Below, piece by piece: positions 13,627-50,718 of a stretch of DNA of 64,000 nucleotides; the first letter of the stretch is position 1, and each line of letters opens with the position of its first letter. Made by a program: the position numbers and the translations under genes. The notes under the pieces were generated by a model. The model worked only from the letters and a program-made list of their open reading frames with translations. It did no database searches and had not been told where the DNA came from. The stretch comes from an uncultured Nitrospira sp. (GTDB lineage Bacteria > Nitrospirota > Nitrospiria > Nitrospirales > Nitrospiraceae). The DNA lies in contig CABVRO010000005.1 in the NCBI GenBank assembly GCA_902500715.1, positions 975 to 64,974 on the forward strand. The letters run 5' to 3'.

Positions 13627-13754
13627 CAGGATGCTGAAAACGGCCTCCAGCTTCGTTCTCGGTCGTACGTCTCCTTGCGACGTACCGTAAAGGTACGCCT
13701 CAGTCGTCGTACTCCCTGCGGCTTTGCTGGACGCCGTTTTGAGCATCCTGTTGG
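13623..13754. mobile_element. MITE-like element, family B
   Basis: About 29-bp TIR (CTAGCAGGATGCTGAAAACGGCCTCCAGC vs GCTGGACGCCGTTTTGAGCATCCTGTTGG). Central CGTAC-N7-GTACG. The left CTAG contains the fabG stop codon. Confidence 0.7.
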
Positions 13755-13823
13755 GAAATTGAGTCGTCGATTTCACAGCACGAAACAGTGTGTTTCACGG
13801 GTGGTAAATGGGAAGAACAGAGA

Positions 13824-14588
13824 ATGGGTAACGGGGTGGTTGTCACCGGCACGGATACCGGCGTGGGAAAGACCCTCGTGTCTTCTGCGTTGGTCCGGAA
13901 GCTGGTGCAGACTGGCTGCTCTGTCGGGGTGATGAAACCGGTCGAGACCGGTGTGCTTCCCGGGCAACTGAATGAGAGCGACGCGGGCCGACTCCTGGCT
14001 GCGGCGGGAGTATCCGATGGGATCGAAGAAGTGTCTCCCTACCGGTTCCTCACGCCCCTCGCTCCCCTCGCCGCTGCATCCGCCCAAGGGCGTGTGATCG
14101 AGATGCAGGAAATCATGGGACGCTACGAACGGCTTGCGTCCCGATACTCTTGTGTCGTGATTGAAGGCGCCGGTGGTCTGCTCGTGCCGATAGGAACAGA
14201 TTGGGATATGCGCGACTTGATCGGCCGGATCGGTCTACCCGTCGTACTTGTGGGGCGGGCCGGGCTGGGCGGCGTCAATCATGCGCTGCTGACGCTGGAG
14301 GGTCTTCGGCACCGTCACTGCGCGATCGTGGCTGTCGTCTTGAACGAGACGGCGTTGTCCACCGCCCCTGTGCAGCAGGAGCAATGTGCGTCAACGGTCG
14401 CGCTGCTGCGCGAGCGAGCCGGTGTTCCAGTGTTGGGACCGCTGCCGTACCAGCCGCACTTTGGCTCCGATTGGTCCGGCGCCGTCGAGGCGCTGGCGCA
14501 GAGTGGTCCGATCAGGGAGCTTGCCGATCTGGTCTGGAAAGGCCCTGTTGGAAGGTCCGGATCGCCGCGCCGAGGTCCGGAGCCTTGA
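13824..14588 (+). CDS. bioD: Dethiobiotin synthetase
   Basis: TGTDTGVGKT, MKPVETG, IEGAGG and LGGVNH motifs. Confidence 0.93.
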   Translation: MGNGVVVTGTDTGVGKTLVSSALVRKLVQTGCSVGVMKPVETGVLPGQLNESDAGRLLAAAGVSDGIEEVSPYRFLTPLAPLAAASAQGRVIEMQEIMGRYERLASRYSCVVIEGAGGLLVPIGTDWDMRDLIGRIGLPVVLVGRAGLGGVNHALLTLEGLRHRHCAIVAVVLNETALSTAPVQQEQCASTVALLRERAGVPVLGPLPYQPHFGSDWSGAVEALAQSGPIRELADLVWKGPVGRSGSPRRGPEP

Positions 14589-15150
14589 GGATCGCAGAGA
14601 TCACCGCTACGCCATCGGCCCCTGCCGCCATAATTTCGCCGACCGACTCAGCCGTAATGCCACCGATCGCAAACATCGGCAGCGTAGTCAACGCGCGTGC
14701 CGCGCGTAATCCTTCCAGACCGATCACCGGGTCGTGATCGGCTTTTGTGGAGGTGCCAAAAATCGGGCCGAATCCCAGATAGGCGGGCTGTGCGGCGACG
14801 GCCTCGCGCACTTGAACGGCATTGTGCGTCGAAAGTCCGATGATTGTTCCCGGCCTCATGAGCCGCCGGGCGTAGGAGATGGGAAGGTCGTCTTGGCCCA
14901 GGTGCACTCCGTCTGCGTGCACGGCCATCGCCAGATCGCAACGATCGTTGACGATCAACAGGGCGCCGACGTCGGTTGCGGCCTGACGCAAGGCGAGCGC
15001 CTTCGCGTAGGCATCTTTCATCGTGGCCTGCTTATCCCGGTATTGAAAGAGACGGACACCGTGCGCGGCTGCTTCGCGCAGGAGATCGGGCAGCGGGCGA
15101 TCCGGCCTGACCGTAGGGTCGAGCACGAGATACAGCCCATTCAGGGACAA
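14512..15150 (-). CDS. thiE: Thiamine-phosphate synthase
   Basis: QYRDK, INDRCD, GVHLGQDD, GLSTH, FAIGGI and GVAVISA motifs; TTG start. Confidence 0.93.
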   Translation of the reverse strand: MSLNGLYLVLDPTVRPDRPLPDLLREAAAHGVRLFQYRDKQATMKDAYAKALALRQAATDVGALLIVNDRCDLAMAVHADGVHLGQDDLPISYARRLMRPGTIIGLSTHNAVQVREAVAAQPAYLGFGPIFGTSTKADHDPVIGLEGLRAARALTTLPMFAIGGITAESVGEIMAAGADGVAVISAILKAPDLGAAIRTFQQGLSRPDRQAP

Positions 15151-15186
15151 TTGTCGAGTGGCCTGAGACGTGGCGGGCTCCCTGGT

Positions 15187-15316
15187 TTAGCGGGCCGTTG
15201 AAAAAGTCCGCCAGCGGCATTCTCGCATCGCTCCCTAGCTCACCGTACGACAGGGGTACGATGAGCCACGCCGCTTGCTGCGGCCTTGCTGGACGGCATT
15301 GTGAACGGCCTGCTGG
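15187..15316. mobile_element. MITE-like element, family B (second copy)
   Basis: Imperfect TIR (TTAGCGGGCCGTTGAAAAAGTCCGCCAGC vs GCTGGACGGCATTGTGAACGGCCTGCTGG). Central CGTAC-N7-GTACG. Length close to the 13623 copy. Confidence 0.6.
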
Positions 15317-15387
15317 TGATTCCCTTGGATACATGACCTCAGCCGGTTCGCACAATACTGGGCTGAGATCTTTTTGTCAGCAACCTG

Positions 15388-16737
15388 TTACGAGGACTGG
15401 CCGGCAAGAAAGCGATCGAGGAATGTCGTGGAGACATGTCCCTTCTGAAAATCGGGATCGTTGAAAATTCTCCGATGGAGCGGAATCGTCGTCTTGATGC
15501 CTTCGATGACAAATTCATCGAGTGCGCGGCGCATGCGGGCCATGGCTTCCTGGCGATCACGTCCGTGCGTGATCAATTTGGCGATCAGGCTGTCGTAGTA
15601 CGGGACGACCACGGCGTTCGGTTCCATCGCGGAATCGACACGCACGCCGAAGCCGCCGGGGGCGGAATATTTGGTGATCTGGCCTGGACAGGGCGTGAAC
15701 TTTTCCGGGTCTTCGGCATTGATCCGGCACTCGAAGCTGTGACCGTTGAGTTTGATGTCCGGCTGTTTGAACGAGAGGGGCATGCCCGAGGCAATCCGGA
15801 TCTGTTCTTTCACGAGGTCGATCCCGGTCACCATTTCGGTGATGGGGTGTTCGACCTGGATGCGGGTGTTCACTTCCATAAAAAAGAAGTTGCGATCCTT
15901 GTCCAGGAGAAACTCGACCGTACCGACGTTGCAATAACGAATGGCTTTCACTGCCTCCACGGCCACCCGGCCGATTTCACGGCGCAGCCGGTCATCGATG
16001 GCCGGCGAAGGGGTTTCTTCCACCAGCTTTTGGTGCCGTCGTTGAATAGAGCAATCACGCTCGCCGAGATGGACCACATGGCCTCGATTGTCGGCCACGA
16101 TTTGTACTTCGATGTGCCGCGGTTCGAGGAAATAGCGCTCGAGGTAGACGCCGTCATGGCCGAAGGTGGACTTGGCTTCGGCTTGCGCGGCTTGAAACGC
16201 TCGTGCGAGCTCCTCCGGTTTGTTCACGACGCGCATGCCCCGCCCTCCGCCGCCGGCTGAAGCTTTGATGATCACGGGGAAGCCGATGGTCTTCGCGGCC
16301 TCTTGCGCATCCTGTTCGCTTCGGAGTTCGCCGGGGCTGCCGGGAGTGACCGGGAGGCCCTTCCTGGCGACCACTTCCCGTGCCTTGGATTTGTCGCCCA
16401 TCAGGGCGATGTTTTCAGAGGTCGGGCCGATGAATTTGATGCCGATCGATTCGCAGACTTCTGCGAAGTGCGCGTTCTCTGAAAGAAATCCATAGCCGGG
16501 GTGAATGGCATCGGCCCCGGTGACTTCAGCTGCGCTCAGCACGTTAGGGATATTGCGATAACTAAGGGCGGCTTCCGGGGGGCCGACGCAGACGTGTTCA
16601 TCCGCAGCCCGGACATGCAAGCTCGCGGCATCGGCTTCGGAGTGGATCGCAACGGTTTTCACACCGAGCTCCTTGCAGGCGCGGATCACCCGAAGGGCGA
16701 TTTCTCCACGATTGGCAACCAACACTTTCTTAAACAC
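15388..16737 (-). CDS. accC: Acetyl-CoA carboxylase biotin carboxylase subunit
   Basis: [33 protein letters not shown] and [10 protein letters not shown] motifs. Confidence 0.96.
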
Positions 16738-16917
16738 AGGATACTCCGGCGCGGGTCACTGTCTGTGTCCGCCTGGTTCTCACGGTTTGCTCTGCCACAG
16801 GTAAGACCTGATCCGGTTCGGTTGCATGATCCGACACGTGCCGTCTGCCGTCGGACCCACATGCATGAGGAACGTATTCCCGGATCGTCTCGCCATGAAA
16901 CCGCATGATCTCGTCGG

Positions 16918-17493
16918 CTAGGGCGTGGCGTTGGGGTCTATCAAGAAGAGAGGTTGTCCATACTCGACAGGCTTCGTGCTCTCCGCCAGTATTTTCGTGA
17001 TCCGTCCGTCGGCTTCGGACTCGATTTCGTTCATGAGCTTCATGGCTTCGACGATACAGAGCACTTGACCCTTCTTCACGTAATCCCCCTCTTCCACATA
17101 GGGGTCTGCATCGGGTGAGGGCGAGCGATAGAAGGTGCCGACGATGGGAGACGTGATCGTGACCTGGCCATCCGTTTCTGCGGGTGGATGGGTTTGCGCC
17201 GCCGGTGTTGTCCCGGTTGAGGTCGACAGATTTGTGACGGTCTCCACCGTCTGGGCCGTTGTCGTTCTTACAACCGGCTCGTGTCGGATGCGGATACGGA
17301 CTCCGCTCCGTTCAATTTCCAGTTCGGTCAGATGGTTGCGCTTGAGTAGGTCGGCTAACTGTTGAATTTGCGCGGCCTGGTCCGGAGAGAGCAGTGTTTC
17401 AGCGGCTGTTGATCGAGGCGCAAAGGCGCTCGGTAGGACGATCGGTTTCCCGGCCCCACGGTCTTTTCCTGTCTTTTTACCCGATGAGCTCAA
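16918..17493 (-). CDS. accB: Biotin carboxyl carrier protein
   Basis: EAMKLMNE biotinylation motif and SPIVGTFY. The TTG start overlaps the efp stop. Confidence 0.93.
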
Positions 17494-18050
17494 CGCACGC
17501 GCTCCACAAATTCACGAGTTCGCGTATCGATGCGGATCGTTTCCCCGATTTCCAGGTAGAGCGGCACTTTGATCGTGGCGCCGGTCTCGACGATCACCGG
17601 CTTATTGCCGCCTGAGGCCGTGTCCCCGCGTACGCCCGGTTCACCGTCGACCACTTTGAGCTCGATGAAGTTCGGCAGCAGGACCGTAATCGGCCGGTGC
17701 TCATAGATCAGGATCTTGACGATCATATTTTCTTTGAGCAGATCGGCGTTGTTTCCCAACTGGCTTTTCTCATAGGTCGACTGCTCATAGGTCTCCGTAT
17801 CCATGAACGTGTAGGAATCGTTCGTGGCATACAGGAATTGCATGTCGCATTCTTCGATCTGGGGCGTGTCGAATTTTTCTCCGGAACGAAAGGTCCGATC
17901 GAGGACGTTGCCGGAAAGATAACTCTTCAGCTTCGTCCGGACGAATGCCCCGCCCTTGCCGGGTTTGACGTGCTGAAACTCCACGATATAAAAGGGTTGG
18001 CCTTCTACCATTAACGGGCTGCCGTTCCGAAACTCTGCGGTCGAAATCAC
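17490..18050 (-). CDS. efp: Translation elongation factor P
   Basis: KPGKGGAF and PGVRGDT motifs; GTG start at 18050 with GGAG RBS. Confidence 0.95.
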
Positions 18051-18075
18051 AACGACTCTCCTTGGTACAACAGGT

Positions 18076-18573
18076 TCAACGGCGCGAAGCCGTGGGTTTA
18101 TTCTTCGAGCTTGCCCGAGGGCGTGGTGCCTTGCCGCCGGCCTCGAGGTGCACGGCCAATGCGTCCAGCGCCAGCAGATAGCCGGTGGGACCGAATCCGG
18201 AAATCTGTCCCAGAGCGACACCGGCGATGAAGGAGTGATAGCGAAACTCCTCCCGCTGATGGATGTTCGACAGATGCACCTCGACCGTCGGCAGGGCGAC
18301 TGCCGCGATCGCATCGCGAATCGCAATGCTGGTATGGGTATACGCGGCCGGATTGATGATGATGCCGTCGAAATGGCCCCTGGCGTTCTGAATCCAGGTG
18401 ACCAGTTCCCCTTCTACATTCGTCTGTTTGGTCTGCACCGCAATCCCCCGCTCGCCTGCGCGACGGACAATCGACTTGTCGATGTCGGGCAAGGACGCCT
18501 GTCCGTAGACGGATGGCTCTCGCGTTCCCAGGAGATTGAGATTGGGACCATGAAGCACTAGCAGCCGCAGCAT
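18076..18573 (-). CDS. aroQ: Type II 3-dehydroquinate dehydratase
   Basis: [21 protein letters not shown] and EVHLSNI motifs. Confidence 0.96.
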
Positions 18574-18636
18574 GTGTCTGTCGCGCGCCCCCGTTATCAG
18601 TAGGCTGCAATGGATAGAGATGCCAGCAGCGGCGGC

Positions 18637-18665
18637 ATTCTAACAGGGTGTCAGGAGTGGGTCAA
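18637..18665 (-). promoter_or_regulatory. Sigma70-like promoter for aroQ-efp-accB-accC (TTGACC-N17-TAGAAT)
   Basis: Near-consensus hexamers with 17-bp spacing, upstream of aroQ. Confidence 0.65.
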
Positions 18666-18716
18666 ACGTTGTTCCGGGGCGCAGGACGAGCGCTCGTCTC
18701 GCTGTGGGGGAGGCCG

Positions 18717-19394
18717 TCAGTGAACGCGTTGGGCTTGAATGGTTCGCAGCCAGGTTTCCAGGCGCGCGATCGTGGCCGCATGTTTCAAGGCAGGCGGTTC
18801 AGGAACCGCCTGGAGCGCGGTGTCGCAGACTGATTCAGATGCCAAGGACGATACGGATAGGAATGGTTCGGAAGCGGGCGTGACGGGAGCCGCAATTTTC
18901 GCGGTGTCGGGTTTCGGCTCGGTGCCAATGCGTGTTTTCTCGCGCTTCGCGGGTGGAGGAATATCAGGGGCGCCGGTGATGCTCCGTTTGATCGCGGCCG
19001 CCTCTTCATCGAATGGATTGGCGTTCAGGATGGCTGCGCAGGACATCAACGCTGAGTCGGTTTTTCCTTCGGTGTGATAGAGCTTAGCCAGAATGCGGTG
19101 CGCGCGAAGATTGTCCGGGCGCTGTTTGACGACGTCTTCAAGAATAGCCTTCGCTTTCACCGGTTGGCTCAATTGATCATACACCCGCCCCAATGCCGCC
19201 ATGGCGGTGACAAAGCCCGGATAGGCTTTGAGGCCGTCTTCCAGTACGCCCGCTGCTTCCTGCCACATGCCGACCTTGATGTATTCGTCTGCGAGGGGGA
19301 GGAATTCTTTCGAGCGAGGGTCTTTGGCGACGGCAGTGGCCAGGCGGTCGATTTCGGCGGCGGTCGATGGATCGATACGCGGTGATGATGCCAC
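18717..19394 (-). CDS. Tetratricopeptide repeat protein
   Basis: TPR-like helical repeats (LADEY...A...LEDGL...P; LGRVY; LAKLY) with a low-complexity C-terminus. Confidence 0.75.
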   Translation of the reverse strand: MASSPRIDPSTAAEIDRLATAVAKDPRSKEFLPLADEYIKVGMWQEAAGVLEDGLKAYPGFVTAMAALGRVYDQLSQPVKAKAILEDVVKQRPDNLRAHRILAKLYHTEGKTDSALMSCAAILNANPFDEEAAAIKRSITGAPDIPPPAKREKTRIGTEPKPDTAKIAAPVTPASEPFLSVSSLASESVCDTALQAVPEPPALKHAATIARLETWLRTIQAQRVH

Positions 19395-19397
19395 GCC

Positions 19398-20657
19398 CTA
19401 CTCCTTGCGATGTGTCCCGGTTTGCACCGCCGGCTTTGTTGACCTACGGCCGGTCGGTAAGGTCAGGACCCGGTCCAAAATGCGGTGCGCGACGTCCCGC
19501 TTGGGTAACTGGGGGAGTTCCTCTACGCTGCCGTCGCGATCCAGGATGAACACGCGATTCGTGTCCGACCCGAAGCCCGCTCCTGCTGCTGTCACGTCAT
19601 TGGCGACCAGCAGATCGATGTCCTTAGCTTGCAGCTTTTCCCGCGCATGGGCAAGCAGATCCTCAGTTTCCGCGGCAAACCCCACCAGCACCTGTGTCGT
19701 CCGCCGTTCGCCCAATTCCTTCAGAATATCCTCGGTCGGTGACAACTCCAGGCTGGTGACGAGACCCCGGCGCTTTTTGAGCTTCTGCGCAACAGGTTGT
19801 GCGGGGCGAAAGTCCGCCACGGCGGCCGCCATGATGACGGTATCGCTCCAGGAAAACCGGCTGATGACAGCCTTGCGCATCTCCTCAGCCGTTGTCACCG
19901 AACACAACTCCACGTCGGCCGGCGGGGGCAGGGCCGTGGGGCCTGAGACCAGCAGGACCTCTGCGCCGCGTGCCCGCGCGGCTTCGGCAAGCGCATATCC
20001 CATCTTTCCGGAGGACCGGTTGGAAATGAACCGCACGGGATCGATGGGTTCCTGCGTAGGCCCGGCGGAAACGAGCAGACGGCGACCGGACCAATCCCGA
20101 CGCGGGTGGAGCGCGGCCTGAAGTGCCGAAAGGATTCGTGCTTCGTCCGCCAGCCGTCCCTGCCCGGAACGGCCAGAGGCCAGCGGGCCCTCTTCCGGTT
20201 CGACGATGACTGCCCCGCGTTGCCGCAGCGTGGCCACGTGCTCGACGACGGTCGGGTGTTGCCACATGTCCCCGTCCATGGCCGGCGCGAAAATCACGGG
20301 ACATTGTGTAGTGAGGAGCATAGTCGAGAGCAGATCGTCGGCCAGGCCAAGCACGGCTTTCGCCAGGCAATTGGCTGTGGCCGGGGCGATCAGGATAGCC
20401 TGCGCCTGCTCCGGCAAGGAGAGGTGCAGCATTTCCTGGTGGGCTTCGAAGAGGTCGGATGCCACGTGAGAACCGGACAACACCTCGAAGGTCAGCGGAG
20501 TCACGAAGCGGCAGGCTCCTGCCGTCATGACGACGTTCACCGTTGCGCCTTCGCGACGGAGTATGCGCAAGAGCCCCACGGCCTTATAAGCGGCAATACT
20601 CCCCGTGACGGCGAGTACAAGACGGACACCGGTGAGTGAGGGGCCGGTGGTCTGCAC
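19398..20657 (-). CDS. coaBC: Bifunctional phosphopantothenoylcysteine decarboxylase/ligase
   Basis: TGSIAAYK, APATAN, PAMD, GPTQEPIDPVRFISNRSSGKMG, AAVADF and GFAAET motifs. Confidence 0.96.
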   Translation of the reverse strand: MQTTGPSLTGVRLVLAVTGSIAAYKAVGLLRILRREGATVNVVMTAGACRFVTPLTFEVLSGSHVASDLFEAHQEMLHLSLPEQAQAILIAPATANCLAKAVLGLADDLLSTMLLTTQCPVIFAPAMDGDMWQHPTVVEHVATLRQRGAVIVEPEEGPLASGRSGQGRLADEARILSALQAALHPRRDWSGRRLLVSAGPTQEPIDPVRFISNRSSGKMGYALAEAARARGAEVLLVSGPTALPPPADVELCSVTTAEEMRKAVISRFSWSDTVIMAAAVADFRPAQPVAQKLKKRRGLVTSLELSPTEDILKELGERRTTQVLVGFAAETEDLLAHAREKLQAKDIDLLVANDVTAAGAGFGSDTNRVFILDRDGSVEELPQLPKRDVAHRILDRVLTLPTGRRSTKPAVQTGTHRKE

Positions 20658-20666
20658 GAAGCGGGG

Positions 20667-21029
20667 CTACTCCTCGCCCTCCGGAGCCAGGGCGGGCTTG
20701 ACGGTATCGTCGACGTAGACGCTCAGCTCTTTCTTGATTTCCTTGGCGTCCTCTCCGGTCATCATGGCCAGGCGTTCCGTCTCACCTTCCTTGACCCGTT
20801 TGGATTCTTTAATGGCCTCGCGGGCTTCCTGTCCGATCAGGAACTTGACCTTGTGTCGAAGGACTTCGTCGAGGGCGATGCTCGTTTCTTTCGTGTACTT
20901 CGATGCCGCTGCCATGCGCGCGCCCTGCACGAGTTGTTTTGCTCGCTGCGCGGCGACGATTACCAACCGATGGCGTGAATCGAACTCGTCGGCGGCGTAT
21001 TCCGGTAACAAACTTAACATTTCACCCAT
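20667..21029 (-). CDS. rpoZ: RNA polymerase omega subunit with C-terminal extension
   Basis: SRHRLVIVAAQRAKQL motif; canonical gmk-rpoZ-coaBC context. Confidence 0.85.
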   Translation of the reverse strand: MGEMLSLLPEYAADEFDSRHRLVIVAAQRAKQLVQGARMAAASKYTKETSIALDEVLRHKVKFLIGQEAREAIKESKRVKEGETERLAMMTGEDAKEIKKELSVYVDDTVKPALAPEGEE

Positions 21030-21738
21030 GATGCAACGGCTCCTTTGATGCGAGGGGGGAGGAGGAATTCCCCTGCTTGCCCTCTTTGTCGAGAATGAAT
21101 TTTTCTTCCAACCACGTCATGTTCAGGCGTTTGGTTTTGATCCGTTCCGCCAGGAAAATGCTTTCGAGCTCTTTCAAGGATTGCTTCAGGTCGTCGTTCC
21201 GGACGATGTAGTAGTACTCCCGGTAGCTCCAGACCTCTTCTTTGGCTTTCTGCAGGCGGCGTTGAATTTCGTCCGGCGAGTCCCCCGCTCTATTCTGCAG
21301 TCTCGTCCGCAAGGTGTCGAACGACGGCGGGAGAATAAAGATATACACGCCGTCTTCAAACTTTTTTTTCACTGAGCGTGCGCCCTGCACATCGATTTCA
21401 AGCAACACGTCGACGCCCTGTTCCATTTTTTCCGTCAGCATCTTGCGCGGTGTGCCGTACAAATTGCCGTAGACGTGCGCCCATTCGACAAACTCATTCC
21501 GATCGATCATCTGGCGGAATGCCGGCTCATCGAGAAAATGGTAGTCCTGCCCATCCACCTCGCCCGGGCGAGGTTTGCGCGTGGTGTACGAGATCGAATG
21601 CCACAATCCGGGGACGTTGGCCGTGATCTGTTTGCACAACGTCGTCTTCCCGCTCCCCGACGGAGCCGAGATGATGAACAAAATGCCACGCCGCACTTGG
21701 GGCGGTTTCTCGTGGGATGAAACGGGCGAGGTACTCAT
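21022..21738 (-). CDS. gmk: Guanylate kinase
   Basis: SAPSGSGKT, SYTTRKPRPGE and YGNLYGT motifs. Confidence 0.96.
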   Translation of the reverse strand: MSTSPVSSHEKPPQVRRGILFIISAPSGSGKTTLCKQITANVPGLWHSISYTTRKPRPGEVDGQDYHFLDEPAFRQMIDRNEFVEWAHVYGNLYGTPRKMLTEKMEQGVDVLLEIDVQGARSVKKKFEDGVYIFILPPSFDTLRTRLQNRAGDSPDEIQRRLQKAKEEVWSYREYYYIVRNDDLKQSLKELESIFLAERIKTKRLNMTWLEEKFILDKEGKQGNSSSPLASKEPLHHG

Positions 21739-21768
21739 AAAGTGTTCGATGCCGGCACAGGGCCGACA

Positions 21769-23315: not shown

Positions 23316-23348
23316 AATGCGGGGTGGTGGCGGCCAATTGTGAAGAGG

Positions 23349-25043: not shown

Positions 25044-25068
25044 GGTGGTGCTCCTTGAGAATCGAACG

Positions 25069-26127: not shown

Positions 26128-26280
26128 AGAGAAAACTGCCGACAGGGTGACGGCATGTGAACCTGGTTATGCATGCGCGCGCCATTCCAAGGGGCGAGAT
26201 CAGTCGTAGTGGGCGCACACTGTGACTGGTGCTGTTCGTAAGGAAATCCGGACAACAACTGATCCTGCCGTAAAATGCGA

Positions 26281-26315
26281 CAACCCCCGGATCCGGTTGC
26301 GGACCGCGGGGGTTG
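26281..26315 (-). terminator. Hairpin downstream of clpC, likely a terminator
   Basis: CAACCCCCG / CGGGGGTTG stem, followed at a short distance by a T-run on the minus strand. Confidence 0.45.
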
Positions 26316-26375
26316 CCGGGTGGTCTCTAGGATCTCAACGACGAGTCGATCCTCTCGTAATGGTCTTCGCTCGCG

Positions 26376-28805: not shown

Positions 28806-28894
28806 CCCGCCTCCTTATGGTGATGGGGTCTGTAAGAGAAGCCTTAGCTGAGTGATTTCATGCAGGTCAAAGGCTCGAAAACACTGATGGTGTG

Positions 28895-28923
28895 ATTCTA
28901 ACTAGCGCAATATGGGGTGTCAA
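28895..28923 (-). promoter_or_regulatory. Sigma70-like promoter for clpC (TTGACA-N17-TAGAAT)
   Basis: Near-perfect consensus. Confidence 0.75.
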
Positions 28924-29012
28924 GGTATTGAGAGAAACGCGGGCGTCGCGCTGCGACTGGTGAAACCGCGGCGCGCGCGAAGGAGGAAATCTCCTTCGCG
29001 CTGTATGCTCGT

Positions 29013-29042
29013 TTGACAGTAAAAGAATCATCCCGATACAAT
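29013..29042 (+). promoter_or_regulatory. Sigma70-like promoter for nadK (TTGACA-N18-TACAAT)
   Basis: Near-consensus hexamers about 50 bp upstream of the ATG; divergent from the clpC promoter. Confidence 0.65.
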
Positions 29043-29091
29043 CCCGCACCTTTCAACCGGCTTCTCATCTCCTCGCGACACGGTCTCTTGT

Positions 29092-29952
29092 ATGAAGAGT
29101 AAGAGCATCGGCATCCTGACAAAACCTAAATTTCCGGAAGTGAAAAGCACCGTGCAAGCCGTGGTCACATGGCTTCGTTCCCGGAACATCGACGTTCTCC
29201 TGGATACGACCGCAACGACTTTGCTTGGCGAGTCAGGCGGCTTTCAAAAAACCCATCTCGCCAGTAAGGCCGATGTTTTGCTCGTGTTGGGAGGCGACGG
29301 CACGATGCTCAATGCGGCGCGATTGGCCGGCGAGCGCGGCATTCCGATTCTCGGTGTGAATATGGGCGGTCTGGGATTTTTGACCGAAGTCGTCTTGGAG
29401 AATTTGTACCCGTCGCTTGAGCGGGTGTTCGCAAACGATTTCGTGCTCGATGAGCGACTGATGCTGAAGACGCATGTTCATCGGCACGGCGAAACGGTCA
29501 CCCGCGGTGTGGTCTTAAACGACGTCGTCATCAGTAAAGGCACGCTCGCACGGATGATTGAACTCAAGATCGCGATTCAGGGGCAGTTTGTGACGAACCT
29601 GCGCGGCGACGGTCTGATCATCAGCACCCCGACCGGATCGACCGCCTATTCGCTTTCAGCCGGCGGGCCTATCATCAATCCCGCGGTCCCGTCGTTGATC
29701 CTGACGCCGATCTGCCCGCATACGCTGACACATCGACCGTTGATTGTCCCTGCCAGCGCAGAAATCGAAGTGGCCCTGACCAGTAAAGACGACGGGGCGA
29801 TGGCGACGCTCGACGGCCAGGTCGGGGTGGCGTTGACTCAGGGCGACACGGTGGAAATCCGGGCCTCCGAGCACATGACCAGACTGATTCGTTTCCCGGA
29901 GAGTAGTTATTACGTGGTGCTGCGGGAGAAACTGAAATGGGGCGACGGGTAA
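29092..29952 (+). CDS. nadK: NAD kinase
   Basis: GGDGT, GVNMGGLGFL, LND and STPTGSTAYSLSAGGP motifs. Confidence 0.96.
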   Translation: MKSKSIGILTKPKFPEVKSTVQAVVTWLRSRNIDVLLDTTATTLLGESGGFQKTHLASKADVLLVLGGDGTMLNAARLAGERGIPILGVNMGGLGFLTEVVLENLYPSLERVFANDFVLDERLMLKTHVHRHGETVTRGVVLNDVVISKGTLARMIELKIAIQGQFVTNLRGDGLIISTPTGSTAYSLSAGGPIINPAVPSLILTPICPHTLTHRPLIVPASAEIEVALTSKDDGAMATLDGQVGVALTQGDTVEIRASEHMTRLIRFPESSYYVVLREKLKWGDG

Positions 29953-29973
29953 GGAACGTCGAGGTTGGCGCGG

Positions 29974-31344
29974 TTAGCCGCGCCCCCGCTCGATGTGAGC
30001 CAGCATGTCGGCGTTCGATGCAAACTTAAACTCTCCGATCGCATCGGGAGAGGCGGCATGAGCTTTCTCCACTGCATCCAGGACCTTGAGTCCATCGAGG
30101 TCTACCGGCCGGCTTTTGCGTTCTTTAAGGATGGTGTGAAGTTTCGCGAGCACTCCATCCATCGTTCTTCGTGAGCGTGTCGCTTGAGTCGTCAGGTAAC
30201 GGGTGATCACTTCCGCGCACCAGTCCCCGTCCCGCTTGGCGATTCCCACCAGACCTTCACTGGCTTTGCGTGCCCAGCCGGCGAGAAAGACGCCCTCAAC
30301 GATCTGTCCTGATTTCTCGTCATAGGCTTGGAAGAGGGCATCGTCCGGATCGTTTCCGGTCTTGTTCGGGTTGGTCACGTAGACGCCGTTCTTATACGGG
30401 AGCCCCACGGTTTCATCAACCCGGTCGCCCACGGCGAACACCACGCTGTCGACAGGGAACTCGTACAATTGTTTGAGCCCGACGGCGGCGGTGTCGTCCC
30501 CTTTCGGTTCCAGCTTATTGTCTTCCATCTCGAGCGCGCGGACGCGATTGTGGCCGTCGACCAGTACGCGCTTCGGGGAGGCCAGAAAGCGAAAGCCCAT
30601 CTTGGAGGGGCTGCCAGTCGGTTCACATTTGGTGAATTCTGCGGTCATGCTCGTCAGCACTTCGTCGGCATTCTGACCGACTGCGGCCAGCCTGTCCTTG
30701 ATGCGGGCGAACTCTGCGGCGATGCCGTCCTGATCCATGTTCGAGCAGACAGCCCGGATTTCTTTCGGATTGTATTTCCGCTCGACCGGCCCGCGTCGCG
30801 CGATAGCGGTGACACGCTCCACCTTCTTATACTTGATCAACCAGTGGGCGATGTCGACCATGACGTCGCCGACGCCGATAATGGCGACATGTTTTCCCAT
30901 GTCGAACGGACGGTCGCCGAAGCCCGGCAGGCGATTGAAGTGGTACACCACATCCTTGGCATGGAAGACGCCCTTGGCGGAATCTCCTTCGACCCCGATG
31001 GCTTTTGTCCCCTGGGCGCCGATCGAGAAGGCGACGGCGCTGGCCCCCAATCCGCGCAAATCTTCAACCGTGAGGTCCTTACCCTGCCCGACTGAGACGT
31101 TGCCGAAGTAGTGGACATTGGGCTGCTCGAGCATGTCCCAATATTGTTTCTTCAACCCACCGCGCAGTTTGAGCTTGCTGGGGAAGATCCCGTACTCCGC
31201 CAACCCGCCGAACTTGATGTCGCGATTGAGAATGACGACCTCGTGGCCCGCATCCGCCATCCTCTTGGCCAGGGCCATTCCAGCCGGGCCTGCGCCCACG
31301 ACGATGACGACATGCCCGCTTGTCTCAGAACCGGTTGCGCTCAT
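29974..31344 (-). CDS. FAD-dependent ferredoxin:NADP+ reductase (adrenodoxin reductase/FprA-like)
   Basis: GAGPAG FAD motif, GGLAEYG, YFGNVSVG, IGVGDV NADP motif, RRGP, and GWARKASEG. Confidence 0.8.
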   Translation of the reverse strand: MSATGSETSGHVVIVVGAGPAGMALAKRMADAGHEVVILNRDIKFGGLAEYGIFPSKLKLRGGLKKQYWDMLEQPNVHYFGNVSVGQGKDLTVEDLRGLGASAVAFSIGAQGTKAIGVEGDSAKGVFHAKDVVYHFNRLPGFGDRPFDMGKHVAIIGVGDVMVDIAHWLIKYKKVERVTAIARRGPVERKYNPKEIRAVCSNMDQDGIAAEFARIKDRLAAVGQNADEVLTSMTAEFTKCEPTGSPSKMGFRFLASPKRVLVDGHNRVRALEMEDNKLEPKGDDTAAVGLKQLYEFPVDSVVFAVGDRVDETVGLPYKNGVYVTNPNKTGNDPDDALFQAYDEKSGQIVEGVFLAGWARKASEGLVGIAKRDGDWCAEVITRYLTTQATRSRRTMDGVLAKLHTILKERKSRPVDLDGLKVLDAVEKAHAASPDAIGEFKFASNADMLAHIERGRG

Positions 31345-31425
31345 TATCTACCCTTCAATCTATATCGAAAGTGAGTCAGTACTGACGAAGACCGTCGAAC
31401 GGTCGAAAGTTTAAAAATTTTGCGC

Positions 31426-31455
31426 ACGTTAGCACAGGGTTCCTCGGGCTGTCAA
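31426..31455 (-). promoter_or_regulatory. Possible sigma70 promoter for the FNR-like gene (TTGACA-N18-TAACGT)
   Basis: Hexamers upstream of ATG 31344. Confidence 0.5.
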
Positions 31456-31526
31456 AATCGCCGACCGCCCCGGTGAAACCAGGTGTGGCCGGATTGCGAT
31501 GCCCGATGAGCCGGTCCGGCAGTCGT

Positions 31527-32981
31527 CTACCCGCCTGCACTGCCGACCGGTCCGCCGGCCTGCGTCATCCGCCACGGATCGAGGAGTTGCGTGAGCCGCT
31601 TTTCAGGCAACACGTTTTGTTCGCGAGCCACTTCCCGGACGGTCTTGCCGGATTTATAGGCATCCTTGGCGAGTTTTGCGGCCGCCTCGTAGCCGATCAC
31701 CGGCGCGAGCGCCGTGCACATGGCGAGACTTTCTTCGATCAAACTCTTGCAGCGTTCCTCGTTCGCCTTGATGCCTTCAATGCATTTCACCGCAAAGTTC
31801 GTCGAGGCCGTTGCCAGCAACTCGATGGACTGCAGCAGGTTGTAGGCCATCACCGGCAGCATCACGATCAACTCGAAATTAGCCGCCTGGCCGCCGACGG
31901 TGATCGTGACGTCATTGCCGATCACCTGGGCGCAGACCATGGTGACGGATTCCGCAATGACCGGATTGACTTTGCCCGGCATGATGGATGAGCCCGGCTG
32001 GGTTTCCGGAAGATTGATCTCGCCGAGTCCGCAGCGCGGACCTGACCCGAGCCAGCGGATGTCGTTGGCGATCTTCATCAGGCTGACTGCCAGGGTGCGC
32101 AATTCCCCACTGGCCTCGACCAATGAGTCCTGGGCGGACTGTCCTTCGAAGTGGTTGACGGCTTCCTTGAACGCGCAGCCCGTCTCCTTCGAAATGATGG
32201 CCATGACCTTGCCGGCGAATTTCGGATGACAGTTGAGTCCGGTACCGACGGCAGTGCCTCCCAGGGCCACTTCGCTGAGAACCGCTTGAGCCCGCTTCAT
32301 CCGAGCGATGCCCAATTCAATTTGTCTGGCGTAGCCGCCGAATTCCTGTCCCAGCCGGACCGGCGTCGCATCCTGCAAGTGGGTCCGGCCGATCTTGACG
32401 ATTTTATCGAACTCGCGGGCTTTGCCGTTGATCGCCTTATGCAGCCGAGTGAGCGCGGGAATCAATTGCCGTTGAATGGTCTCCGAGGCCGCAATGTGGA
32501 TGGCGGTCGGAACCACATCGTTGCTCGATTGGCCCAGGTTCACATGGTCGTTCGGGTGCACCAGTTTGCTGCCTCTGGCGCCGCCGAGCAGTTCCGTGGC
32601 CCGGTTGGAGATGACTTCGTTGGTGTTCATATTGGTCGAGGTGCCGGAGCCGGTTTGGAAAATATCGACCGGGAATTCGGCATCCAGGCGTCCTTCCACA
32701 ACTTCGGTGGCGGCCCGAACGATGGCGTCCGCGGGCTTCTTGTCGAGCAGTTTCAACGAATGATTCACCGAAGCGGCGGCACGTTTGATGAGTCCCATGG
32801 CCCGGATCATCGCGCGGGGAATACGAAGCGAGCTGATCGGGAAGTTCTCGATCGCCCGGGCGGTCTGGACCCCGTAATAAGCATTGGAGGGAACCGGCAG
32901 TTCACCCATTGTGTCGCGCTCCATGCGTGTGGAGGTGGTCATGGATGCGGCGGTGCCGGTTGTGCGCGAAGCGTTCTTCAT
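31527..32981 (-). CDS. fumC: Class II fumarate hydratase
   Basis: RMERDTMG, FQTGSGTSTNMN, GRTHLQDA and GSSIMPGKVNP motifs; GGAG RBS before ATG 32981. Confidence 0.95.
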   Translation of the reverse strand: MKNASRTTGTAASMTTSTRMERDTMGELPVPSNAYYGVQTARAIENFPISSLRIPRAMIRAMGLIKRAAASVNHSLKLLDKKPADAIVRAATEVVEGRLDAEFPVDIFQTGSGTSTNMNTNEVISNRATELLGGARGSKLVHPNDHVNLGQSSNDVVPTAIHIAASETIQRQLIPALTRLHKAINGKAREFDKIVKIGRTHLQDATPVRLGQEFGGYARQIELGIARMKRAQAVLSEVALGGTAVGTGLNCHPKFAGKVMAIISKETGCAFKEAVNHFEGQSAQDSLVEASGELRTLAVSLMKIANDIRWLGSGPRCGLGEINLPETQPGSSIMPGKVNPVIAESVTMVCAQVIGNDVTITVGGQAANFELIVMLPVMAYNLLQSIELLATASTNFAVKCIEGIKANEERCKSLIEESLAMCTALAPVIGYEAAAKLAKDAYKSGKTVREVAREQNVLPEKRLTQLLDPWRMTQAGGPVGSAGG

Positions 32982-33161
32982 CGTCGGGTCTCCTCGAATA
33001 GCTGGCAGTTGACGTGTTGGAGCCGCGCATCTTAAACGGTCCCCGTGCGGAAGCACAAGCATGGCTGCCCCCGGGAGCGGAAATTGCGCTCGCCCGTTCG
33101 TGAACCAAACGGCCGGAGCAGACAGTGAGATGGTGATGCGATGGCAGGGAGGGTGGAACTG

Positions 33162-33187
33162 AAAAGGCCCGCCGGGGGGCGGGCCTT
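33162..33187 (-). terminator. Intrinsic terminator of hsp20
   Basis: On the minus strand: AAGGCCCGCC-cccc-GGCGGGCCTT followed by TTC. Confidence 0.7.
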
Positions 33188-33210
33188 CCTTCCCATGGCA
33201 CCCGATGTCG

Positions 33211-33666
33211 TTAGGAGATCTTGACGTCGATCTGTTTCGGTTTCGCTTTTTCCGATTTCGGGAGATGCAGGTGCAGAACACCCTCCGTATATTCTGCTTT
33301 CACCTTGCTCTCGTCGACCGAATCGGGAAGTGTGAAGCTCCTGACAAACCGACCGTACGACCGTTCGATACGATGGTACTTCTTACCCTTTTCTTCCTTT
33401 TCCTGTTTCCGCTCACCCTGAATGGTGAGGACCGCATCTTCGACCGTGACCTTCACATCTTCTTTCTTGACCTCGGGAAGCTCAGCCTTAATGGCATACT
33501 CGCTCTCGGTTTCGCTGATGTCGACGGTCGGAGTCCAGTCGGCAACGGTCATGACTTCCTTCCCCTGTCCGGTAGCCGTGCCGGTTGAGGGTCGCGCAAT
33601 CATCCGGTTCAACCGGTCGGACATCTCCTCCAATTCCCTGAACGGATCCCATCGTACAATCGCCAT
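33211..33666 (-). CDS. Hsp20/alpha-crystallin small heat shock protein
   Basis: RWDPFREL, VDISET, ELPEV, ERSYGRFVRSFTLP and C-terminal IDVK; AAGGAGG RBS. Confidence 0.95.
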   Translation of the reverse strand: MAIVRWDPFRELEEMSDRLNRMIARPSTGTATGQGKEVMTVADWTPTVDISETESEYAIKAELPEVKKEDVKVTVEDAVLTIQGERKQEKEEKGKKYHRIERSYGRFVRSFTLPDSVDESKVKAEYTEGVLHLHLPKSEKAKPKQIDVKIS

Positions 33667-33848
33667 GGTGGAACCTCCTTGTGTGGATGTGTTGACGCTG
33701 TTCCCTTGGGACATCCTACGTACTAGAAAGGAGGTAATCTTCACGAAGCTGAAGTCAAGGCCCGCGCCGGAAGAGTTAAAGGCGGTGACGGGGTCTTGAC
33801 ATTGGGACCCACGGCATTATTTAGTAGCCCCCTTCACACAGGGAGGCG

Positions 33849-33944
33849 ATGACCATGCTGGAATACATGTCTTATGCGCTGCTCGGCGGTATCATGTTTG
33901 TGACATCGATTGTCTTGTGGTGGTTCATCGGTCGCACTGAGTAG
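33849..33944 (+). CDS. Small single-transmembrane protein, 31 aa (MTMLEYMSYALLGGIMFVTSIVLWWFIGRTE)
   Basis: GGAGG RBS, upstream TTGACA-N16-TATTTT (33796-33823), one hydrophobic helix. Below the ORF-track cutoff. Confidence 0.6.
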   Translation: MTMLEYMSYALLGGIMFVTSIVLWWFIGRTE

Positions 33945-33955
33945 CTGTTCCTCGA

Positions 33956-35089
33956 CTACCGTTTGTCGATCGGCACATAGTGCCGGTCGTGTTCGCCGGA
34001 ATAGATCTGGTCGGGTCGATAAAGCTTGTTCTCCCGCAGTTGCTCCAGCCAATGCGCCAGCCACCCGCTCACTCGCGCCATGGCGAAGAGCGGCGTAAAG
34101 AGATCCATCTCGATGCCCATCTTGTCGTAGATGATACCGGAGTAAAAGTCGACGTTCGGGTATATTCCCTTGTCCTTCAGTCGTTCACCCGCGAGTTGCT
34201 CCACCGCCACCGCCACTTCATACAGCGGGGACGTTCCGCAGACGTTGAAGAGACGCATGCAGAGGTCCTGTAGCACGGTCGCGCGCGGATCTTTCACCTT
34301 GTAGACCCGGTGCCCAAACCCCATGAGTTTGTTCTTGCCTTGGAGCCGAGCCTCGACCGCCGACTTGGCCTGGGCCGGAGTGCCGATTTCCCGCAACATC
34401 ATGACCACTTCTTCGTTGGCACCGCCGTGCAGTGGTCCTTTTAAGGCGCCGATCGACGACGCCACCACGGTGTACGGGTCAGCCAGAGTCGAGGCCGTGA
34501 CCATGCCGGCAAAGGTCGACGCGTTCATCGTATGTTCGGCGTGGAGAATCAAACAGTCGTCGAAGACTTCGCTCCACAGCGGATGCGGAACGGTTTCGGT
34601 CAGCATGTAGAGAAAGTTATCGGAAAACGGCAAATCGTCCCGCGGCGGGATGTACTCGTCCCCGCGTCTCAGGCGCGCCCAGGCCGCCACGATGGTGGGG
34701 AGTTTGGCGATCAGCCTCACCGCCGACCAGTAGTTGTTGGCCAGGTCCTTCACATTGCGGCCCGGATAGAACATGCCGAGTGCCGCGACCGCTGCCTGCA
34801 ACGCATCCATAGGATGCCCATGCTCGGGCATGACCTTCAATAGATCGACGATGCGGAATTTGATGCGTCGATGGTGCGTGACGTCATCGACCCATTGTGT
34901 GAGCTCAGGCGCAGTCGGCAATCGACCGAACAGCAGCAGATAACTCGTTTCGAGAAACGACGAGTGCTGGCAGAGTTCCTCGACGCGGATGCCGCGATAT
35001 TCGAGCACGCCTCGCGTTCCATCGACATCGCTGATCGCCGATTTTGCGGCAGGCACACCGGCAAGCCCCGGCATGAAGTCGTGCGGCAT
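33956..35089 (-). CDS. gltA: Citrate synthase (short type)
   Basis: HAEHTMNAST, GPLHGGAN, GFGHRVYK..DPRA and YPNVDFYSG motifs. Confidence 0.95.
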   Translation of the reverse strand: MPHDFMPGLAGVPAAKSAISDVDGTRGVLEYRGIRVEELCQHSSFLETSYLLLFGRLPTAPELTQWVDDVTHHRRIKFRIVDLLKVMPEHGHPMDALQAAVAALGMFYPGRNVKDLANNYWSAVRLIAKLPTIVAAWARLRRGDEYIPPRDDLPFSDNFLYMLTETVPHPLWSEVFDDCLILHAEHTMNASTFAGMVTASTLADPYTVVASSIGALKGPLHGGANEEVVMMLREIGTPAQAKSAVEARLQGKNKLMGFGHRVYKVKDPRATVLQDLCMRLFNVCGTSPLYEVAVAVEQLAGERLKDKGIYPNVDFYSGIIYDKMGIEMDLFTPLFAMARVSGWLAHWLEQLRENKLYRPDQIYSGEHDRHYVPIDKR

Positions 35090-35313
35090 AGTCTCGCTCT
35101 CCTCTCTTCAACAACACGAATGATGATCCACCACGTATGCATCCGGCGCCTGGAGATGCCTTCCCTCGTGCCGCTGTTTCGACGCCACTGCCCGCACACG
35201 TGCCTGGCTGAGCTTACCATGATCGGCGGTGCGGACTCAGCTCCCACCTTGAATTGGTGCGGCCTGCTTGGCATACTCACTCGAACGACGTGTGACTCTC
35301 TATGAGGCATTGA

Positions 35314-35550
35314 GTGACAGGTGTGACACGGATTCTTGTGCTGCTCGGGCTTCTGGTGCTGGGTGTGGCCTTGTTCATGCTCGGGCGCGACGAGCGGCCG
35401 GCAGCCGTTCCCATCGAACCACGCATCGGGCGCAGCACCTTGAGTCACGGCGGGCCCGGCGCAGGATCTATCCCGATCGCGCCCGCGGAAGCCCCGTCCG
35501 CAAATCCCCGGGTCCCTTCCAATCAGTCTCCGTACGCAACCACGAGGTGA
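35314..35550 (+). CDS. Small membrane-anchored Pro-rich hypothetical protein
   Basis: N-terminal TM segment and low-complexity tail; 3 bp from the next gene. Confidence 0.5.
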   Translation: MTGVTRILVLLGLLVLGVALFMLGRDERPAAVPIEPRIGRSTLSHGGPGAGSIPIAPAEAPSANPRVPSNQSPYATTR

Positions 35551-35553
35551 GGC

Positions 35554-35943
35554 ATGAGCTGGTTCCGCTTGCGGGCGTGGGGAATCGTGACATGGGCGAC
35601 ACTGAGTCTGTTTGCCCCTGCCTGGGCCGATGACGACACGGTTGTATTTGCCGTCGTCAGCGATGTCCCGAAAGACAGGTTGCGCGTGTCGGCCAAGGCG
35701 CTACTTGACGGTGCCGTCTCCGACATGAAACTTCTGCCGGGAGAATCGATCCTCGGGAATCCGGTCTGGCGCACCCTGGAAGTCTGTCATGCGCTCAAGC
35801 TTGAAGGAACGAAGACAGGAGACGGATTCAAGGTCACCGTGGCACGGGTTCTCGATGCCAGCATGCTGCCGATGGCGCTGCAGGGATATGCCGGGGATTG
35901 CTTGATTAAGAAGGCGGTGGAAATCGCGCCGTTGGCGGATTGA
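35554..35943 (+). CDS. Exported hypothetical protein with two Cys
   Basis: Signal peptide (AWA cleavage) and GAGG RBS; natural composition. Confidence 0.7.
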   Translation: MSWFRLRAWGIVTWATLSLFAPAWADDDTVVFAVVSDVPKDRLRVSAKALLDGAVSDMKLLPGESILGNPVWRTLEVCHALKLEGTKTGDGFKVTVARVLDASMLPMALQGYAGDCLIKKAVEIAPLAD

Positions 35944-35950
35944 ATGGAGT

Positions 35951-36012
35951 AGTGGTGAGTCATAAGTCTAGAGGTATCACTCACCACTCACGACTGAGCA
36001 CTCAGCACTTCC
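35951..36012. repeat. Hairpin (AGTGGTGAGT / ACTCACCACT) overlapping a degenerate 7-bp tandem array (CACTCAC CACTCAC GACTGAG CACTCAG CACTTCC)
   Basis: Seen directly, between convergent genes. Confidence 0.55.
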
Positions 36013-36013
36013 T

Positions 36014-36388
36014 TTAGCGGCAATCGGGACAGACGGTCGGTTCCTCGTCGGCGTCGCATTCGTCGGCCGTGAGCGGAAAAAATTGCTCGCACTGCCGGCA
36101 AGTGCGGATTTCGAAATACGCCACCCCCTGCTCGTCGATCTCGGTGGGGAGTAGGAGTTCAAAGGGATCATAGCCCAGTTTGACCTCGTCCTCGAAGCGA
36201 ATGATGGCCAGTCGATCATTGAACACTTCAAAGGTGGCTTCCTTGCCTTTCCGTTCCAGCCGGTGTCCGACGACAAACACGGGTTGCCCCTTGCGTTTGG
36301 TGCGCAGATCTTTCAAGGTGCGTTGCGACGCTGACGCACAGGAAAATTTGCCGGCCTGGTCGCTGGTGTCGGTTCCGAAAATTGGCAT
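36014..36388 (-). CDS. Hypothetical protein with C-terminal zinc ribbon
   Basis: CRQC...CPDC pair of CxxC motifs. Confidence 0.7.
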   Translation of the reverse strand: MPIFGTDTSDQAGKFSCASASQRTLKDLRTKRKGQPVFVVGHRLERKGKEATFEVFNDRLAIIRFEDEVKLGYDPFELLLPTEIDEQGVAYFEIRTCRQCEQFFPLTADECDADEEPTVCPDCR

Positions 36389-36405
36389 AGGTCAACAGTA
36401 TCTCT

Positions 36406-36601
36406 TTAGCCCGCATTAATCATGACGGTTCGTTGCGAAATCGCCGAGTCATGTCGCGAGACCGGCGCGCGGAGCCGGGAGGACCCGACGCGTACTTGTG
36501 CAGTACGTTGAGGGTCCGAGGGGCGAGCCCGCCGGCCGAAGGCCCGTCGCAGCAGTGAATCGACGATTGCAGCAGAAGTGATCATGAATAATGCGGGTTA
36601 G
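36406..36601. mobile_element. MITE-like element, family A (second copy)
   Basis: 20-bp TIR (TTAGCCCGCATTAATCATGA vs TCATGAATAATGCGGGTTAG) resembling the 4687 TIR; central CGTAC-N7-GTACG. Confidence 0.68.
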
Positions 36602-50679: not shown

Positions 50680-50718
50680 TCACTACTCGTCTAGCCCGCC
50701 AGGGGCCTTCTCGACATC

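Follow-up and report, generated by a model that had tools for sequence, protein, structure and literature searches.

What maintains the same short palindrome at the centre of otherwise unlike repeat elements? We addressed this question in a 64-kb stretch of a Nitrospira draft genome (3.66 Mb, 59% G+C, 241 contigs), namely positions 975-64974 of contig C5, referred to here as the window. Exact copies of CGTAC-N7-GTACG lie at 13681-13697, 15244-15260 and 36491-36507, within repeat elements whose left flanks start at 13623, 15187 and 36406, and a degenerate form, CGGAC-TGCGA-GTACG, is read at 4768-4782 within a fourth element at 4687. A sequence-only reading had reported these occurrences, which the DNA bears out, and had proposed that two families of terminal inverted repeats (TIRs) share one hairpin whose stem is selected independently of the ends. 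[quoted passage not shown]

The simplest alternative is that short palindromes resemble one another by chance in GC-rich intergenic DNA, and the shortness of the 5-bp stem is the only point in its favour. The window contains three matches to CGTAC-N7-GTACG where 0.01 are expected, and none of 100 shuffled windows reached three. Genome-wide there are 54 matches with a 7-nt spacer, compared with 0-10 for each spacer of 3-6 or 8-11 nt, nearly all of the 7-nt copies fall inside repeat elements, and the homology extends over ~80 nt of flanking sequence. We therefore consider chance resemblance refuted.

Iterated nhmmer searches with the four host elements as queries recovered about 192 loci in the draft genome, which fall into three repeat families. 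Family A is a ~130-nt hairpin with more than 100 loci, two of them in the window (13623 and 15187); family B, of ~190 bp and about 20 loci, is represented in the window at 36406, and family C (~175 bp, about 40 loci) at 4687. Elements of all three families fold far more stably than shuffled sequence. The hairpin caps a module of ~80 nt, GTTCTCG-stem-CCTCAACGTAC-loop-GTACGCCTC-stem-CTGCGGCC, which is common to the three families and to a fourth flank context. Families A and B have in common GGAYCC-TCAA-CGTAC..GTACG-CCTC-GGRTCC and, farther out on opposite sides, GTTCTCG and CTGCGGCC; family C has a degenerate core, GTTCTCG..CCTCGACGGAC..GTACGCCTG. The proposal that different TIR families share a hairpin thus stands, with three families and a fourth flank context in place of two families, and with a shared unit that measures about 45-80 nt rather than 17 nt and extends in degenerate form to the family of the 4687 element.

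The fourth context is a class of six copies (C108:3795, C22:24588, C24:6728, C146:6478, C7:322 and C110:7232) in which the ~80-nt core alone sits inside another conserved flank (aatgatctgcc.gca ... atccgccggca) with the apex CGTATTC-AGC-GAATACG. The converse arrangement also occurs, with family-A outer arms around a different interior (..CCGTGAAGCGT..ACG.TTCACGAAC..) at C59:2255, C88:2060, C70:5968 and C11:23073 and, within the window, at 50710-50804, where the inverted repeat reads CTCGACATCCGTGAATCGTGAAGCGT / ACGCTTCACGAACGACGGGTGATGAG. Because the core is found in other arms and the family-A arms are found around another interior, the repeats are mosaics around a common core, a pattern showing modular exchange of arms and interiors. 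The three families and the fourth flank context share their interior by descent and arm-swapping, not by convergence. The suggestion that nested MITEs carry the hairpin is supported in spirit, the architecture being mosaic or nested. One family-C subfamily carries an additional central insert of ~45 nt (e.g. C15:26162-26399).

The fold of the interior was evaluated on an alignment of 66 full-length family-A copies, in which 39 canonical pairs were compared with 500 shuffles. The proportion of paired cells was 89.6% (76.2% in shuffles), 34 of the 39 pairs had changed on both sides (22.4 in shuffles), and the covariation score was 0.384 (0.159 in shuffles); none of the 500 shuffles reached the observed values. 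When partners were slid by 1-3 columns, only 34-42% of cells paired. The apical stem itself has compensated variants (CGTAGCC..GGCTACG, CATAC..GTATG and CGTATTC..GAATACG), and two pairs below it vary between GU, AU and GC and between GU and UG, respectively. The stem is accordingly not a fixed sequence, as had been supposed, and what is retained is its pairing. Mismatches are fixed as well. On the strand reading ...AAGGCCGCAG...GAGGCGUAC...GUACGUUGAG...CGAGAACG... they form three tandem G.A/A.G motifs together with G.U pairs, and the totals for the two strands are 222 G.U against 110 A.C and 314 G.A against 62 C.U. RNAalifold gives -27.3 kcal/mol for the G.A/G.U strand and -12.3 kcal/mol for the other, and a covariance model built from this genome's copies only (R1) scores the two strands at about 110 and 36 bits. 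The interior therefore retains pairing through compensatory changes, and its fixed mismatches give G.A and G.U on one strand only.

The core extends well beyond Nitrospira. A scan of one genome per species for CTCAACGTAC-N7-GTACGCCTC found at least 119 loci, and the matches listed are mostly from Nitrospira, with others from Bryobacterales, Terriglobia, Methylomirabilota, Geobacter, Pelobacter, Syntrophales and further 'Deltaproteobacteria' metagenome-assembled genomes (MAGs). R1 identified full-length copies in a Syntrophales MAG (38), two 'Deltaproteobacteria' MAGs (34 and 14), a Bryobacterales genome (25), Geobacter sp. OR-1 (15), a Terriglobia genome (8) and a Methylomirabilota MAG (3). 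The blocks AAGGC, GAGGCGUAC, UACG and AACG are kept in at least 85% of rows. Copies of the delta type retain the same inverted repeat and YTAR flank, and copies from Acidobacteriota and Methylomirabilota have other outer arms. Look-alikes of the element are thus present in at least three other phyla (Acidobacteriota, a Desulfobacterota-type group and Methylomirabilota). The proposed independence of the stem from the ends is consequently upheld for a larger unit, a core that is kept with at least four outer contexts in this genome and with other arms in other phyla, and that has undergone compensatory changes. No described Nitrospira repeat or MITE family turned up in our literature searches, and the core motif is absent from the supplementary repeat tables of the G. 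bemidjiensis genome paper.

What kind of element carries this core? By every feature tested the elements have the character of IS5-type MITEs, being non-coding, 130-210 bp long across the about 192 loci (170-210 bp when complete), and bounded by TIRs and a duplicated 4-bp YTAR target. Copies of families B and C have identical YTAR on both sides, including the non-palindromic TTAG...TTAG of the window's family-B element. The family-A hairpin at first sight has YTAR on its left side only, and about half of the family-A copies begin exactly at the stop codon of a co-oriented gene; with YTAR as the target, elements often land on TAG or TAA stop codons. The apparent one-sidedness can be followed in Candidatus Nitrospira defluvii, whose 119 copies include about 17 near-identical 207-bp elements, indicating recent activity. 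In these near-identical copies a tail of ~60 nt lies between the 131-nt hairpin and a second right repeat, TTTTTCCGCAGCCTG, and the 207-bp unit has CTAG on both sides. The ~130-nt hairpin would thus be the left part of a ~205-nt element, and YTAR looks one-sided only because the hairpin makes up no more than a portion of it. About 23 of 71 family-A copies in the present genome have a right repeat with YTAR 54-61 nt past the hairpin, as opposed to 3-5 of 71 in controls, and the window element at 15191-15387 is among them.

A candidate source of transposase is also found in Ca. N. defluvii. An insertion sequence of 1316 bp in that genome, TTAG|CAGGCTGCGGAAAAAC...GTTTTTCCGCAGCCTG|TTAG, has ends that match the family-A inverted repeat CAGGMTGCGGAAAAA, and its 342-aa open reading frame (ORF) encodes a transposase of the IS5 family (NF033581 at 278.9 bits, cut-off 140; DUF772 and DDE_Tnp_1). 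Such an insertion sequence could supply transposase in trans, in which case an IS5-family enzyme would move the family-A elements and duplicate YTAR. Ahead of the transposase frame is a short ORF, MRGQDTQQAGLFSYLSPEK (L207:938-1000), that ends in TGA just before the 342-aa ORF, and this copy of the insertion sequence is perhaps either a pseudogene or dependent on read-through or frameshifting. The outer stem of family A has a G.G mismatch (C.C on the other strand; 13639/13742 in the window) within GCTGAAAA / TTTTGAGC in 61 of 66 copies, so that on one strand each arm contains TGA; this mismatch is missing from the true right repeat (TTTTTCCGC) found in the long forms and in the insertion sequence. 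At C44:1968-2217, a family-A hairpin begins 2 nt past the terminal CTAG of a family-C element, a nested or adjacent insertion that fits YTAR targeting.

The window's own elements illustrate these forms. The 173-bp family-C MITE occupies 4691-4863 on the plus strand between CTAG target copies at 4687-4690 and 4864-4867; it was recovered by nhmmer, has the inverted repeat CCCGGACTATTCAT.. / ..CGAATAATCCTGG and folds at -95.9 kcal/mol (z -8.5). Its degenerate core (GTTCTCG..CCTCGACGGAC-TGCGA-GTACGCCTG), identified by R1 (17.2 bits, E 0.045, model positions 26-107) and by block comparison, spans 4736-4817 on the minus strand around the apical hairpin at 4768-4782. The 188-bp family-B MITE at 36410-36597 (plus strand; fold z -6.4, nhmmer family; inverted repeat CCCGCATTAATCATGA / TCATGAATAATGCGGG) lies between direct TTAG repeats at 36406-36409 and 36598-36601. 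Within it the shared core at 36470-36533 (plus strand; R1 23.2 bits, E 0.0018, model positions 36-102), with its apical hairpin at 36491-36507, is inverted relative to the two family-A copies, and its flanks, GGACCCGAcG / TTGAGGGTCC, match the family-A core. The long-form family-A element begins after a TTAG target copy at 15187-15190 and consists of the hairpin at 15191-15316 (plus strand, supported by its fold and by an R1 score of 113.8 bits on the minus strand; apical hairpin 15244-15260), a tail at 15317-15370 that gives the same 54-nt spacing to the right repeat as in other long forms, and the right TIR TTTTTGTCAGCAACCTG at 15371-15387, which has two mismatches to the right-end consensus TTTTCMNCARCCTG-YTAR. 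The TTAC that follows at 15388-15391 is a decayed right copy of the target, the left copy being TTAG.

The remaining family-A copy offers a view of the element over time. Its CTAG target (13623-13626, plus strand) provides the TAG stop of the ORF at 12868-13626, which ends at the same codon in relatives that lack the element. The hairpin, with its 'top' strand on the plus strand, occupies 13627-13750 (R1 109.8 bits on the minus strand against 36.5 on the plus; fold z -8.4 and -9.5; apical hairpin 13681-13697), and is followed at 13751-13812 by what is probably the degenerate tail of the insertion, given about 65-90 extra nt past the hairpin compared with empty sites. No right repeat is recognisable in this tail, where the best right-end match has seven mismatches, equal to background. 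Among relatives the site downstream of this ORF has four states, namely a full element, internal deletions, a remnant (TAGCAG|CCTGCTGGGA) and an empty site, the last in G011 and G013 with the stop codon unchanged. These four states and the unchanged stop in empty sites argue that the insertion is old, landed on the stop codon and decays by palindrome-type deletions. Comparison of the window with the orthologous copy in G017 gives identities of 94% for the hairpin, 49% for the tail, and 91% and 77% for the flanking coding DNA. At this site, then, the interior has been kept to the same extent as coding DNA, and the neighbouring tail has decayed.

The strand asymmetry of the fold raises the question of which nucleic acid is constrained, and element orientation bears on it. 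On the Ca. N. defluvii chromosome the strand of the 119 hits switches with the replichore (42:11 at 0.2-2.3 Mb and 16:42 beyond; Fisher 5e-8), GC skew changes sign where the element strand switches, and 84 of 111 copies fit the replichore. In the present genome, where local GC skew was used, the weaker-folding strand lies on the G-rich (leading) strand, i.e. the lagging-strand template, in 42 of 60 copies. In the relative G011, orientation tracks local GC-skew flips 30:11, and our own tally of hits in the first 2.3 Mb is 18:5. (Between 2.4 and 4.1 Mb of the G011 chromosome, loci L254-L273, GC skew flips sign at least six times in what is a single-contig MAG, reflecting either several large inversions or assembly errors.) Across the three genomes the replication-strand bias is 70-76%, whereas the gene-strand bias is only about 59-65%, and between two lagging-strand genes nine of ten copies oppose the direction of the genes. 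The weaker gene-strand bias and the copies opposing lagging-strand genes indicate that replication, not transcription, sets orientation. The 15 youngest placeable copies in Ca. N. defluvii are split 8:7 and the older ones 73:18 (p 0.043), and families B and C, which are younger, have no significant orientation bias. This pattern fits loss of copies that expose their stronger-folding strand at the fork, rather than oriented insertion. Because orientation follows the replication strand and not gene direction, we infer that single-stranded DNA, and not a transcript, is what is constrained.

These data bear on the possibility that the core is a structured RNA module (a 3' untranslated region stabiliser, processing site, terminator or small RNA) transcribed from the G.A/G.U strand and riding on, or domesticated from, MITEs. 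The strong covariation and the G.U pairs and tandem G.A motifs on one strand are what such a module would display; about half of the family-A copies begin directly at a co-oriented gene's stop codon, many copies have A-tracts and T-tracts bordering the GC-rich stem, and transcription and processing are known from the literature for the Correia elements of Neisseria. Where copies abut stop codons, however, it is the weaker-folding strand that enters the mRNA, and, with orientation set by replication and nine of ten copies opposing their flanking lagging-strand genes, no single strand is consistently transcribed in cis. The A- and T-tracts form part of the inverted repeat of the insertion sequence, and arms of the Acidobacteriota type do not have them. 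Rfam produced no match across the window at gathering thresholds, with only noise at E values up to 5 around the elements. A simple scan for intrinsic terminators found nothing at the elements, its stem and loop limits being unsuited to such long hairpins, and some elements lie inside apparent operons and so cannot be strong terminators. On balance we consider an RNA module unlikely, and the RNA-binding protein offered earlier as a possible reader of the stem is weakened, since orientation follows replication rather than transcription.

A bias with respect to replication has also been reported for IS200/IS605 elements, and the hairpin had been suggested to be a recognition site for an HUH-type transposase, either a REP-associated tyrosine transposase (RAYT) or an IS200/IS605 TnpA, that would move a REPIN- or PATE-like element as single-stranded DNA. 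The conservation of YTAR only to the left of the ~130-nt hairpin could be taken in the same sense, and the genome does contain three Y1_Tnp genes, two of them intact and RAYT-like and one frameshifted. Yet complete elements have inverted repeats and YTAR on both sides, the same ends are found on an IS5-family insertion sequence, and the youngest copies lack an orientation bias. With filters off, no R1 match closer than 1.5 kb to any of 11 Y1_Tnp loci (this genome, N. defluvii and a Bryobacterales genome) was better than E 0.4, and flanks were inspected directly as well, so that the RAYT or TnpA gene flanked by such hairpins that had been anticipated is not found at these loci. The intact RAYT-like genes, each encoding ~230 aa (C3:37884-38591 and C133:118-789), have private flanking inverted repeats (e.g. 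AAAAGGGGTCGGGAGTCTTT) that are not repeated elsewhere in the genome. A Y1 transposase as mobiliser is therefore largely refuted and in our estimate very improbable; in particular, one-sided insertion of the IS200/IS605 kind is contradicted by the second right repeat, the duplicated target, the IS5 partner and the lack of Y1 association. Separately, the frameshifted Y1_Tnp copy (C182:~1437-1857) lies 55 nt from half of a family-C element.

A different objection is that the core has no selected function and is simply a passenger from master copies, with template switching (quasipalindrome correction) mimicking compensation and differential deletion producing the orientation bias. In its favour, these MITEs are selfish, the orthologous site shows internal deletions mediated by the palindrome, young copies lack a bias, and the younger families B and C have no significant one. 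Correction by template switching is difficult to reconcile with the persistence of the same mismatches (tandem G.A, G.U and the outer-stem G.G/C.C) in more than 60 diverged copies and across phyla, where they have not been corrected. Moreover, the core outlasts changes of the outer arms, and the hairpin at the orthologous site is 94% identical where the tail is 49%. We regard this explanation as improbable, to much the same degree as an RNA module.

We thus favour a core constrained as single-stranded DNA. In its simplest form, copies exposing the stronger-folding strand at the fork would be preferentially deleted, as the internal palindrome deletions at the orthologous site might illustrate, and the core would be a structure-specific recognition or folding module that aids the element's spread or persistence. 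We can only guess at how it might do so, possible routes being that it binds a conserved host DNA-structure protein or that it presents a paired transposon end. The element is otherwise of a familiar kind, its unusually conserved interior setting it apart, and constraint at the level of single-stranded DNA is our best guess for function.

Several points weigh against this interpretation. Arm-to-arm template switching can likewise produce covariation in a palindrome when there is no selection, and the contrast between young and old orientations depends on just 15 young copies. The right repeat and YTAR are recognisable in only about a third of this genome's family-A copies, and that the remainder are decayed long forms is our inference. 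Gene calls came from a rough custom ORF caller. No partner insertion sequence was identified for families B and C. Some of the matches outside Nitrospira come from MAGs, where mis-binning is possible, although copies are also found on 2-Mb Bryobacterales contigs and in the Geobacter sp. OR-1 assembly.

With regard to the B and C partner, the DDE_Tnp_1 insertion sequences of relatives G004 and G010 were considered and set aside, as their ends (GGAAGGTCTGATT..) are not convincingly those of either family. Outside the window, seven contigs (at C33:30809, C47:23220, C83:14819, C116:49, C151:55, C174:49 and C235:1578) end 35-50 nt into the identical sequence CTAG|CCTGAATTATTCGTGATTCTGGCAAGAAAAAAGGCCATCGAGTCTCCACAC. 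This is an unassembled high-copy repeat with a B/C-like end and a CTAG target, possibly a partner insertion sequence or another MITE, and it is absent from 30 relatives and from a metagenome collection. Two further identities for the repeats were rejected. Integron attC sites differ in their core sites (R''/R' RYYYAAC / GTTRRRY would be expected, and the ends are YTAG-CAGG... and ...CCTG-YRGG) and the copies are dispersed rather than in arrays; the Chunjie MITE of Geobacter differs in its 9-bp duplications and AT-richness.

The usual definition of a MITE is by its ends, with an interior that drifts. In these elements it is the interior that is conserved; it withstands replacement of the ends and occurs in at least four phyla. 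With them one can test in what way long hairpin repeats are tolerated at the replication fork, and whether a folded DNA strand is recognised by some factor of the host or of the transposon. In addition, the covariance model could serve to mask these stop-codon-sited elements in genome annotation.

The earlier statement that no described element has this architecture was too strong, as several known systems share parts of it. IS5-derived MITEs are likewise small elements with no ORF, with IS5-family inverted repeats, a duplicated 4-bp YTAR, dispersal in many copies, and orthologous sites that are filled in some genomes and empty in others. The present elements differ from them in that the interior rather than the ends is most conserved, that this interior recurs in several phyla and inside several unrelated arms, that the layout is lopsided, with a 60-nt tail and a second right repeat after the 130-nt hairpin, and that old copies have an orientation relative to replication. 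REPINs and REP sequences with their RAYTs are comparable as abundant, ancient, vertically inherited hairpin repeats in intergenic DNA; our elements lack their Y1_Tnp association and instead have inverted repeats, target duplications and an IS5 partner. In the mosaic repeats known as BIMEs in E. coli, NIMEs in Neisseria, BOX in pneumococcus and the Tn3-derived TIMEs, modules are recombined so that arms and interiors occur in varied combinations, as here, but the module shared by our elements is a single structured unit of ~80 nt kept across phyla.

A resemblance in block order is found with the Correia elements (CREE/NEMIS), which are 105-155 bp long, fold as long hairpins and have a target that contains TA. 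As read from three viral-contig loci, they have the same series of blocks, TAG-..GGAT..AAAAA..CC.G..GGCGTT.C.TCGC..GTAC..GTAC..CTGCGGC..GCCTTG..TTTTTG..ATCC. R1 aligns end to end on exactly the element in the three Correia copies with weak scores (17-20.4 bits, E 0.026-0.15), and a sequence-only hidden Markov model (nhmmer) gives 5 bits. The GAGGCGTAC..GTACGTTGAG apex is absent from Correia elements, which are reported to duplicate TA and not YTAR. We treat this likeness, which is suggestive only, as a lead and not as membership. A bolder proposal would make the ~80-nt core an ancient strand-specific module that a conserved protein recognises in its folded form, whether single-stranded DNA or RNA, and that has been passed between MITE families with different ends and between phyla, with Correia as a diverged member; we consider this possible but doubtful. 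To our knowledge a transposase that mobilises Correia elements has never been found, and if they do belong to the same superfamily, an IS5-family (YTAR/TA-targeting) transposase becomes a candidate for that role.

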